From: Candidatus Zhuqueibacterota bacterium
GTDB taxonomy: Bacteria > Zhuqueibacterota > QNDG01 > JABMRT01
Direction of reading: 5' to 3'
Assembly (NCBI GenBank): GCA_013202295.1
Contig: JABMRT010000118.1
Span: 16,109-80,108, forward strand
DNA length: 64,000 nt
Shown here: piece after piece, positions 23,500 to 25,952 of the stretch
How positions within the stretch are numbered: position 1 is the first letter of the stretch
Layout of the letters: each line of letters begins with the position of its first letter
Made by a program: the position numbers and the translations under genes
The notes under the pieces: model-generated
Told to the model about the DNA's origin: nothing
Database searches by the model: none
Seen by the model: the letters and a program-made list of their open reading frames with translations, nothing else

Positions 23500-25755
23500 A
23501 TGGAATCGAAGATTATTTATACGAAAGTGGACGAAGCGCCCGCTTTGGCGACCTACTCTTTGCTCCCAGTGATAAAAGCTTTCACTGGAGCAGCAGGTGT
23601 TCCTGTGGAAACCAGGGACATATCACTGGCAGGAAGGATAATCGCCAAATTCCCTGAATATCTCACAGAGGAACAGAGGATAGGAGACCATCTGACCGAA
23701 CTCGGAGAGTTGGCCAAGACCCCCGAAGCAAACATCATCAAACTGCCCTGTATCAGTGCTTCCATACCCCAGTTGAAAGCTGCAGTCAAGGAGCTTCAGG
23801 AAAAGGGCTACAATCTGCCGGATTACCCCGAGAAACCCTCCACGGATCAGGAGCGGGAGATAAAGGCCCGCTATGACAAGATAAAGGGAAGTGCCGTGAA
23901 CCCGGTTCTCAGGGAAGGAAACTCCGATAGGAGAGCCCCCTCTTCCGTGAAGAACTATGCCAGGAAGCACCCTCATCCAATGGGCGAGTGGTTTTCTGAA
24001 TCCAAGTCCCATGTGGCTCATATGACCAGCGGAGATCTGTGTTCCAACGAGACTGCGACGACAATAACAGCTGAAACCGCGGGAGAGGCCAGGATAGAGT
24101 TCGTAGCCAATGACAGCAGCGTCAATGTATTGAAAGACAAATTGAATCTGCTGGATGGAGAGGTTATAGATGCCTCACACATGAGCAAGGAGAGCCTCCG
24201 CAGGTTCCTTGAGGAGCAGATCAAGGACGCAAAGAACAATGACATTCTGTTCTCTGTGCACTTGAAGGCCACCATGATGAAGGTCTCTGACCCCATCATA
24301 TTCGGCCATGTTGTCTCGGTATTCTTCGACGAAGTTTTTACGAAACATGCGGACACCTTCAAAGAACTGGGTGTAAGCCCCAACAACGGGTTGGGTGACT
24401 TGGTCAACAAGATACAGAATCACCCCAAGAAGGATGAGATAGAGGCAGATATCCAGGCCTGCACCAAAAAGAGGCCAGGCCTGGCAATGGTAAATTCCGA
24501 CCTGGGCATCACCAACCTTCATGTGCCCAGCGATGTTATCGTTGACGCCTCCATGCCCTCGGCCATCAGGAACTCAGGCCGCATGTGGGACAAGAACGGA
24601 GAGCTAAAGGACACAAAATTCGTAATCCCTGACAGCAGTTATGCCGGAGTATACCAGGCCGTCATCAACTTCTGCAAGAAGAACGGGGCCTTTGATCCCA
24701 GGACCATGGGTACTGTGCCCAACGTGGGACTTATGGCACAGAAAGCCGAAGAATACGGCTCCCACGACAAGACCTTCGAGATGACTGGAAATGGTGTTGT
24801 ACGCATCGTCTCAGCCTCCGGTGCCACCCTTTTGGAGCAGAAAGTAGAGGAAGGCGACATATTTCGACTATGCCAGGTGAAGGATCTGCCAATACAGGAC
24901 TGGATTAAGCTGGCCGTTACCAGAGCAAGGGCAACGGGCTGGCCCGCCGTCTTCTGGTTGGACAAGAATAGAGCCCACGATGCACAACTCATAGAGAAGG
25001 TGAACAAGTACCTGCCAAACCACGATACAAGTGGTTTGGACATACGCATCATGTCTCCCATGGAAGCGACCCTGCTCTCGTGTGAGCGTATAAAAGAAGG
25101 TGAGAATACAATATCCGTGACCGGAAATGTGTTGCGTGACTATCTCACCGATCTGTTCCCCATACTTGAGGTTGGAACCAGTGCGAAGATGCTTTCCATC
25201 GTTCCATTGATGAACGGCGGTGGCCTGTTCGAGACTGGAGCAGGCGGCTCAGCGCCGAAGCATGTCCAGCAGTTCCAGCAAGAAGGGCACCTTAGATGGG
25301 ATTCTCTTGGCGAGTTTCTCGCATTGTCTGCTTCTCTGGAATATTTGGCCGACAAGACCGGCAACGCAAAGGCCCAGGTATTGGCGGATACACTTGACCA
25401 AGCAAACGGTAGGTACCTGGAAAACAATAAGTCTCCTTCTCGCAAGGTGAACGAGATAGACAACCGTGGCAGCCATTTCTACCTGGCCATGTACTGGGCG
25501 AAGGCGTTGGCCGAACAAACCAAAGATGCCGAACTACAGGTAAAGTTCGCCCCACTGGCAAAAGACCTCGTGGAGAACGAGCAGAAGATCATGGAAGAGC
25601 TCATCGGATGTCAGGGAAACCCACAGAATGTCGGAGGATACTACCTGCCTAACAATGAGTTGGCATCCAAGGCTATGCGGCCTAGTGCTACGATGAACAC
25701 AGCCATAGACGGGTTCCAGGGTTCTGCTGCGAAAGTAACACTTAACACCTTGTGA
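23500..25755 (+). CDS. icd: Monomeric-type NADP-dependent isocitrate dehydrogenase (~750 aa)
   Basis: The length and the N-terminus '[51 protein letters not shown]' are characteristic of monomeric IDH (Azotobacter/Corynebacterium type). Codon usage is rich in AGG/AGA Arg, ATA Ile and AAG/GAG, unlike the flanking genes. Confidence 0.9.
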
Positions 25756-25784
25756 ATCCGGGATCCGTTGTGCTCAGAGACTAG

Positions 25785-25952
25785 ATGATGCTGCGCACCA
25801 TGGGCTGGACAGAAGCTGCCGATCTTGTAGTCCAAGCCATCGAAAAGACGATCCGTCAAAAGCGGGTTACGTATGACCTTGAACGTCAGATGGAAGGTGC
25901 GACCAAGCTGAGTTGTTCAGAGTTCAGTCAAGCCATTATTGAAAACATGTAA
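25785..25952 (+). pseudogene. icd: 3'-terminal remnant (56 codons) of a dimeric-type isocitrate dehydrogenase (icd) gene
   Basis: It translates to '[55 protein letters not shown]'. This is near-identical in pattern to the E. coli Icd C-terminus (..[55 protein letters not shown]). An in-frame TAG lies immediately upstream, and there is no upstream icd body. Confidence 0.6.

Follow-up and report, generated by a model that had tools for sequence, protein, structure and literature searches.

The window analysed here is a 64-kb stretch of contig JABMRT010000118.1 from a Candidatus Zhuqueibacterota bacterium, and the gene in question follows its aconitase gene (acn) and encodes an isocitrate dehydrogenase (IDH). 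We conclude, at a probability of about 85%, that this is a case of in situ non-orthologous gene displacement, in which a foreign gene for a monomeric IDH replaced the resident gene for the dimeric enzyme (icd). An analogous, non-homologous gene lies in the slot where relatives in candidate division KSB1 carry icd, the incomer is foreign, the anomaly is confined to the IDH, and a physical trace of the displaced gene is left behind. The first-pass annotation of this DNA had proposed that a foreign IDH displaced most of the resident icd and left its 3' end as a fossil, and that proposal is supported by codon usage, phylogeny, 12 related loci and similarity to Icd.

The proposed course of events starts from an ancestor with the order STAS, acn, dimeric icd, terminator, p215 and Tricorn-like gene. 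A segment of ~2.27 kb (roughly 23470/23487 to 25751) would now replace icd codons 1 to ~384. It would comprise 13 nt of foreign leader, an entire monomeric IDH gene and a junction stretch of ~17 nt; of icd itself, the last 66 codons would have stayed in place together with the terminator. Both joins would be illegitimate. The IDH would have lost its own stop codon, reading 7 codons further and ending on a TGA provided by icd bases. It presumably shares the acn transcript and ends at the old icd terminator and would in this way have taken over the expression context of icd.

The Monomeric IDH Gene

The open reading frame (ORF) at 23500–25755 of the + strand encodes an intact monomeric (type III) IDH of 751 amino acids, of the type that uses nicotinamide adenine dinucleotide phosphate (NADP). 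The Pfam match to PF03971 is full length, covering residues 4–737 of the protein and positions 1–734 of 734 of the profile with 1302 bits. Residues 4–737 of the monomeric IDH of Azotobacter vinelandii (1ITW) are collinear with residues 3–736 (1140 bits), with only a few short (2-residue) gaps visible and without truncation or large indels. H588, R599 and R648 align with His589, Arg600 and Arg649 of 1ITW, which we take to be the NADP-specificity residues of the A. vinelandii enzyme. Since these residues are conserved, the cofactor output of the IDH step is probably unchanged. The enzyme is predicted from its sequence to be active.

Codon usage sets this gene apart. The window as a whole has a G+C content of 46%, and the ORF comparisons use its 28 ORFs of at least 200 amino acids. 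Among these, the IDH ranks highest in G+C content at third codon positions (GC3, 0.62) and in the share of AGR among arginine codons (0.59), ATA among isoleucine codons (0.51), AAG among lysine codons (0.68) and GAG among glutamate codons (0.56). A per-codon log-likelihood was then calculated from a host table and from a donor-like table built from the non-IDH genes on the contigs with the closest outgroup IDHs. The log-likelihood ratio of the IDH is +0.111, making it the sole positive ORF; the other ORFs have a mean of −0.151 (standard deviation 0.050), for z = 5.3. The donor-like signal is positive across every 60-codon window of the gene, and composition shifts abruptly at the gene borders. 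The ratio is host-like for acn (−0.105) and for the icd fossil (−0.081), the latter as the first-pass annotation had said. When the donor-like table is taken from the archaeal contig L174 alone, the ratio is +0.063 for the IDH and averages −0.318 (standard deviation 0.067) for the other ORFs, for z = 5.7. The genome-wide codon style of L174 (GC3 0.70, AGR 0.68, ATA 0.55, AAG 0.68) is near that of the window IDH. When the pooled "archaeal" table was retested contig by contig, L167 and the archaeal L174 fit the window IDH, and the PVC-labelled L169 and L004 did not.

The earlier description of the IDH as a codon outlier is thus borne out by both the codon fractions and the two z values. It had been added that every other gene of the window favours CGN, ATT and AAA; this holds as a trend and not universally. 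Three other window ORFs have AGR at about 0.5. One ORF (57918–59456, 512 amino acids) has a different unusual codon style, with GC3 0.33, AGR/Arg 0.50, ATA/Ile 0.50 and GGA/Gly 0.53, and may be another foreign gene.

Source of the IDH

More than 8000 homologues of the IDH were scored among 5.8 billion proteins, and the top 120 were examined for names. The best are 74–79% identical, apart from one KSB1 relative at 86%, which lies at the locus designated L003. Besides the window's own protein, all six of the named taxa in the top 120 are archaeal, five of them Thermoplasmata/Thermoplasmatota and one Altiarchaeota; that the nearest relatives would come from a distant lineage had been anticipated. 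In a neighbour-joining tree, the IDHs of the window and L003 are sisters in 200 of 200 bootstrap replicates and are nested in this group. The IDH is phylogenetically foreign to its host lineage, and we consider it probable that the donor was an archaeon.

In this clade the IDH gene commonly stands behind an aconitase gene. Such donor-type cassettes, in which acn and IDH are separated by spacers of 12–31 nt, are found at L167/L168, L169/L170 and L174. The last of these is archaeal by context, with aS21 and aEF-1beta directly downstream and NurA and HerA nearby. The incoming DNA would have come from an acn–IDH cassette as in Thermoplasmatota-like archaea, with only the IDH part kept in the window. 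The link to such a cassette is drawn from the 13-nt leader in front of the IDH, which matches the acn–IDH spacers of L003 and L167 (see below).

The icd Fossil

Abutting the IDH stop is the 3' fossil of a dimeric icd, consisting of 66 codons and the original stop (25752–25952, + strand). Within it, an annotated ORF of 55 amino acids (25785–25952) matches the extreme C-terminus of dimeric Icd, at E = 6e-20 to PDB 3dms, at E = 2e-17 to residues 362–416 of E. coli Icd, and at E = 6.8e-8 to positions 300–348 of 348 of the PF00180 profile. By frame translation and tblastn, the icd homology extends upstream through the TAG at 25782–25784, where the counterpart stretch in E. coli is VNPGSIILSAEMMLR, and it is on this account that the fossil comprises 66 codons (25752–25949). 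It starts with GTGAAT, which supplies the last base of the final IDH codon and the TGA stop of the IDH (25753–25755). The first-pass annotation had described 56 codons of Icd C-terminus behind an in-frame TAG 27 nt after the IDH stop. The similarity and the TAG stand; the length does not, and the frame in which the TAG lies is that of the fossil, not that of the IDH. A further tblastn extension of the homology to 25695 was discounted, as it adds only ~3 identities in 19 residues.

The fossil shares a KSB1-specific 24-residue motif with the Icd of relatives. Its mean identity to 8 intact orthologues is 70%, and those are 75–83% identical to one another. Five of its substitutions are private, there is a single stop codon and the frame is not shifted. 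An entire icd reading frame has ~420–450 codons with the catalytic and dimer-interface regions, and only the last 66 codons are present here; 25752–25952 is a gene fragment and not a member enzyme of the dimeric Icd family. No second icd-like sequence or icd 3' end was found across the 64-kb window, and no icd 5' remnant was found between acn and the IDH, nor any frameshifted icd upstream of 25752. Two short Icd C-terminal proteins, P0125 and P0158, were considered as further fossils and rejected; they come from frameshift-broken icd genes on error-prone long-read contigs.

The Ancestral Arrangement

When metagenomes were scanned with the STAS gene as anchor, 80 related loci were recovered, and the window proteins were mapped onto them. 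In 12 KSB1-like loci (L086, L088, L090, L092, L094, L100, L104, L105, L108, L109, L113 and L120), the gene directly after STAS and acn is a full-length dimeric icd (417–463 amino acids). Most of these continue to p215 and/or the Tricorn-like gene; three of the contigs end earlier, and p215 was undetected in three others. Relatives with acn followed by a full-length dimeric icd had been expected by the first-pass annotation, and these 12 loci, mostly with the same downstream genes, provide them. The arrangement in relatives, the lineage-specific motif in the fossil and a shared terminator together identify the resident gene of the window as a dimeric icd. The upstream neighbour of the displaced gene, acn (21529–23457, + strand; Pfam Aconitase and Aconitase_C), is the resident, native KSB1-type aconitase gene. 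It is 72–77% identical to the acn of KSB1-like relatives, versus 64% to the foreign acn of L003, and is nearer to native than to donor-type acn in all sliding windows.

In an acn-anchored contig scan, the matches listed have at most 69% identity, with no KSB1 genome among them. Among those matches acn is followed by a dimeric icd in 12 of 80 loci and by a monomeric IDH in L005. At the latter locus (L005:7001–10666, a Nitrospirae metagenome-assembled genome), the IDH follows acn directly, and its acn is the closest non-KSB1 match (68.5%). At L165:757–8271 the order is acn, ATP-citrate lyase (aclBA) and IDH, which looks like a reverse tricarboxylic acid (TCA) cycle cluster.

Not all of the related loci have kept the ancestral arrangement. 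L103 and L097 hold a different monomeric IDH (L103:4163–6382 and L097:7196–7930), ~60% identical to all members of the clade described above, in the same slot between acn and p215. The nearest relatives of L103/L097 by STAS and acn bear icd; this is an independent displacement. The stop of the L103 IDH sits where the icd stop of relatives sits, and a native-type terminator follows. The tail of this IDH, IIDTM*, was considered as icd-derived and rejected; such tails are normal in monomeric IDHs, and only a possible microhomology is left. At L117, acn is followed by p215 without icd, and ~20–55 codons at L117:12649–12813 resemble the icd N-terminus (E = 0.002), which suggests an independent loss of icd by an internal deletion that would have kept a 5' remnant. 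L158 has acn and neither icd nor p215; elsewhere icd occurs without acn, or both are missing. At L110:12660–16629, ~4 kb with three unrelated ORFs (407, 289 and 345 amino acids) lies between acn and an intact icd; the acn–icd spacer therefore tolerates insertions. The acn–icd locus is generally unstable in this group.

Junctions and Expression Context

The native acn stops at 23455–23457 and the IDH begins 42 nt downstream. The last 13 nt of this spacer, 23487–23499, are a donor-derived 5' leader with the ribosome-binding region, GGAGTTTGATAAC, homologous to the acn–IDH spacers of L003 (GGAATTTGAGAAC) and L167 (GGGAGTTGAAAGAAC); blastn homology between the window and L003 starts at 23487 as well. 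The preceding 29 nt (23458–23486) are the left portion of the spacer and hold the 5' junction. They weakly resemble the native acn–icd spacer of L113 and also an internal IDH segment (family D6), neither convincingly, and their assignment as native acn–icd spacer was rejected, the similarity being too weak. A 17-nt stretch within them (23468–23484, CCCAGAAGGATGAAATA) matches 24425–24441 inside the IDH at 15 of 17 positions, a resemblance that is probably due to chance.

At the other end, blastn homology to the IDH of L003 ends at ~25697. The usual 18-residue tail after the RPSxTxN motif would end at 25734, and the window has AAA where homologues stop. The 17 nt from 25735 to 25751 are junction sequence without assigned origin, and icd homology begins at 25752. 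As a result of the read-through, the tail after RPSxTxN is 25 residues, the longest of 115 homologues (usually 13–18). No direct repeats pairing 23458–23499 with 25735–25790 were found, nor any attachment-like (att-like) sites, and neither junction showed homology to acn or icd; the joins therefore look illegitimate. This does not bear out the first-pass suggestion of recombination within the acn–icd locus. A Pfam scan of 14 neighbouring ORFs (5.7–36 kb) found no mobile-element genes.

Downstream of the fossil, a terminator scan identified the native icd intrinsic terminator at 25983–26017 (+ strand), AAAAGGCAGA-loop-TCTGTCTTTT followed by a T-run, with a 10-bp stem and the hairpin proper at 25983–26007. 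The hairpin AAAGGCAG...CTGCCTTT follows icd in L086, L090, L092, L100, L108 and L113, with a variant in L104; it is not visible within 75 nt after icd in L105. A native-type hairpin also lies 3' of the IDH in L003 and L103. The conserved downstream gene p215 (25962–26609, + strand) has no Pfam match, and its homologues lie 3' of icd or IDH in relatives. Its listed TTG start is upstream of the hairpin, and the alignment of homologues begins at about residue 40. The true start is probably downstream of the terminator, since the extension given by the listed start contains it.

No promoter-like site was found in a scan of the acn–IDH spacer, and the nearest one lies inside the acn coding sequence, ~110–140 nt before the acn stop. 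Since the spacer is only 42 nt long and without a promoter-like site, the IDH is probably co-transcribed with acn. We presume that it is translated from the imported leader and that the transcript ends at the old icd terminator.

The L003 Locus and the Time of Displacement

The L003 locus is syntenic with the window, with flanking proteins 78–88% identical and the IDH 86%. Its proteins were found again at 99.9–100% identity on the independently assembled L173, and L085 has the same STAS–acn junction. The acn of L003 (L003:6054–7961) has donor-like codons and is 64% identical to that of the window, 82.5% to that of L167 and 72% to a Thermoplasmatales acn. Nucleotide sliding windows reveal that it is chimeric, the first ~40 codons being native and the rest donor-type. 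The native part is 82–83% identical to the window, with third positions at 0.59–0.72, and the break falls at the universally conserved motif IDQTLTQDATG. Of icd, L003 keeps only the last five codons (ATT GAT GAA GCC ATG TAA), before the terminator. The IDH junctions of L003 differ from those of the window.

For every gene, the number of synonymous substitutions per site (dS) separating the window from L003 is 1.0 or more, and most genes are saturated. The age of the fossil was estimated by simulating neutral decay from the intact orthologues; the simulations reject decay of at least 0.15 substitutions per site (P < 0.01) and fit best at 0.02–0.08. The fossil is thus too well preserved to predate the split from L003, from which it follows that the loss of icd in the window lineage is recent. 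Either icd was truncated long after that split or the fragment is constrained. Constraint is unlikely, because hardly anything of the fragment is left in L003, conserved sites of the fossil carry radical changes and no ribosome-binding site is evident in front of it.

We give about an even chance to a history in which the window lineage acquired its IDH separately and later, the source being either the same donor lineage or a different KSB1 bacterium. The youth of the fossil, the differing junctions and the much weaker amelioration of the IDH in the window (+0.111 versus +0.023 in L003) agree with such a history, which needs an unsampled close donor. More tentatively, and with some doubt outweighing belief, the acn–icd locus might be a recurrent entry point for foreign TCA-cycle genes, with the window recording a second, recent transfer of a Thermoplasmatota-type cassette into a sister lineage. 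If so, gene flow from archaea to bacteria at this one locus would be repeated and ongoing; in L003 it would have given a cross-lineage chimeric aconitase, and at L103 another monomeric IDH lineage would have taken the same slot independently.

Alternative Explanations

Several observations weigh against parts of the account given above. The neighbours of the L169 IDH, the closest one in the sister group, are labelled "PVC group bacterium", so the IDH clade is not purely archaeal, and the L169 codon table misfits the window IDH. Among the 5.8 billion proteins nothing outside the KSB1 pair exceeds 79% identity, which is unexpected if the transfer was recent. The saturation of dS for most genes affects the comparison of the window with L003, and the youth of the fossil is read from only 66 codons, on which selection may act. 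A second icd may exist elsewhere in the genome, the search having covered the 64-kb window. Finally, the sister relationship of the two IDHs, their position at the same locus and the shared donor spacer fit one older acquisition equally well. Under that older acquisition, an acn–IDH cassette would have been inserted once, in the shared ancestor of the window and L003 lineages, with native acn on one side and a still intact icd on the other; coexistence and differential loss would have followed. The window lineage would have deleted the foreign acn and then, recently, the first 384 icd codons; in the L003 lineage the two acn genes would have been fused by homeologous recombination and nearly all of icd deleted. 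Along with the sister IDHs (200 of 200), the common slot and the homologous leader nucleotides, this would account for the chimeric acn of L003, since tandem paralogues should yield such a chimera when they recombine, and a single deletion of ~195 nt would turn the 3' junction of the window into that of L003. No donor sequence exceeds 86% identity, as would suit an old transfer, the young fossil is explained without a second one, and L110 demonstrates that the acn–icd spacer accepts insertions. On the other hand, an acn–acn–IDH–icd intermediate is absent among the 80 related loci, four separate deletions are needed, each ending cleanly at gene borders, and it would be odd for IDH codons equally long resident to be near the donor in the window (+0.111) and largely ameliorated in L003 (+0.023). 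On balance, we regard a single old insertion as possible and rather doubtful.

The remaining alternatives are far less probable. We hold it quite improbable that the 55-codon ORF is retained as a translated small protein or as a functional element of a 3' untranslated region under selection. The ORF is intact, begins with ATG and carries a protein annotation both in NCBI and at the Joint Genome Institute (JGI), and it is preserved far beyond neutral decay since the split of the window and L003. However, its ATG-ATG start is the conserved MM of Icd, it has no obvious Shine–Dalgarno sequence, and the 11 codons upstream of the TAG, which are outside the ORF, still resemble the VNP[GS]SVILSG of relatives and carry S->R and G->D. 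The fragment is almost wholly lost in L003, radical private changes (S->R, G->D and G->S) fall at conserved sites, and the 55-residue end of a ~420-residue fold would be unlikely to fold alone. An integrative element might also have left an icd fragment, as e14 and phage 21 do in E. coli, where the icdC pseudogene starts at almost the same point (PMC13626634); the 55-aa ORF of the window starts at the equivalent residues. Here, however, no intact icd or icd 5' part lies upstream, where native acn adjoins instead; the insert is one metabolic gene without an integrase, none of the 14 neighbouring ORFs (5.7–36 kb) matches integrase or transposase families, and relatives have icd itself in this position. 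We regard such integration as very improbable and in effect ruled out by the lack of att-like direct repeats flanking the insert and of mobile-element genes among the scanned neighbours. Least probable of all, to the point of being negligible, is an artefact of assembly or binning, whereby a contig with archaeal-type codons was mis-joined into a KSB1 contig. The source is metagenomic and the composition changes abruptly at the gene borders, as a mis-join would have it. Yet the same structure is present on an 85.8-kb NCBI contig (candidate division KSB1) and in two JGI assemblies from different samples, with a single-nucleotide polymorphism each; the two JGI contigs are 99.98–99.99% identical to the window across both junctions, and the exact IDH protein is in all of them. 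Synteny with relatives holds on both sides, an artefact would take two exact mis-joins 2.27 kb apart, and the independently assembled L003 strain (L173, L085) has the same gene in the same slot. In situ displacement of icd by the foreign IDH is the explanation we prefer.

Neighbouring Genes

The genes around the IDH form a row on the + strand, all in the same orientation. By Pfam and ORF scanning, it begins with a SpoIIE-type phosphatase (17185–20781) and a STAS-domain protein (20854–21507), continues with acn, the 751-aa and 55-aa ORFs and p215, and ends with a Tricorn/PD40-like protein (26570–29848). Beyond these, a DsbD-like gene (29877–31637) is only 24% identical to its counterpart at L003:14188–15909, with flanks at 66–82% and synteny kept, and may be another replaced gene.

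Comparison with Known Systems

No report of this displacement or of KSB1 IDH genes was found in the searchable literature. The chimeric acn, which concerns L003 and not the window, resembles the chimeras formed by deletion between recombining paralogues (PMC13626634) in that ~40 native codons are joined to a foreign remainder at a conserved motif. It differs in that the parents are homologues from different lineages and only ~64% identical.

The two IDH families are well known, unrelated and patchily distributed. Like the type III IDHs of A. vinelandii (1ITW/1J1W) and C. glutamicum (2B0T), the window IDH has a full-length PF03971 domain, and it aligns end to end with 1ITW. Unlike them, it has a 7-codon C-terminal extension made by the junction, and it is located in a bacterial acn operon with archaeal-style codons. 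A monomeric type III IDH is present in the archaeon Methanococcoides methylutens, and for diatoms a horizontal transfer of the type III enzyme has been put forward (PMC8287583).

The e14/phage 21 system of E. coli provides a parallel to the fossil. There too, an icd 3' fragment of ~55 codons with nearly the same boundary, icdC, persists by the locus. In E. coli, however, an integrase-bearing prophage lies between icdC and an intact icd with a phage-supplied 3' end, whereas the window fragment abuts the gene for an analogous enzyme, with no intact icd, mobile element or att repeats.

The closest comparison is with in situ displacement itself. The concept of non-orthologous gene displacement is reportedly that of Koonin, Mushegian and Bork in 1996, and a study by Omelchenko et al. 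in 2003 is said to bear the title [quoted passage not shown]. The window agrees with such cases in having a foreign gene of the same function in the same position and orientation, with syntenic flanks, that is an outlier in phylogeny and composition. It differs in what can still be read. Published cases have been mostly drawn from phylogeny and synteny alone; in the window, part of the displaced gene and the two junctions remain legible, and sister genomes show alternative outcomes, namely an acn chimera, a remnant of 5 codons and another IDH lineage. This is an established kind of event and involves no new principle; it is an unusually legible case, to which a probable cross-domain origin and recurrent turnover at one locus add value. 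The locus can serve as a natural experiment on swaps of central-metabolism enzymes, on whether newcomer and resident coexist beforehand, and on the exchange of genes between archaea and bacteria in sediments. Displacement is usually inferred after all traces have vanished, and here one can still read the foreign gene in its donor-style codons, the ribosome-binding leader that it brought along, the two junctions with a precision of a few bases, a fossil that has been dated and the native terminator reused, while the relatives add the ancestral state and a range of outcomes, from a chimeric aconitase and a 5-codon remnant to the 5' remnant of a plain deletion and a second IDH lineage.

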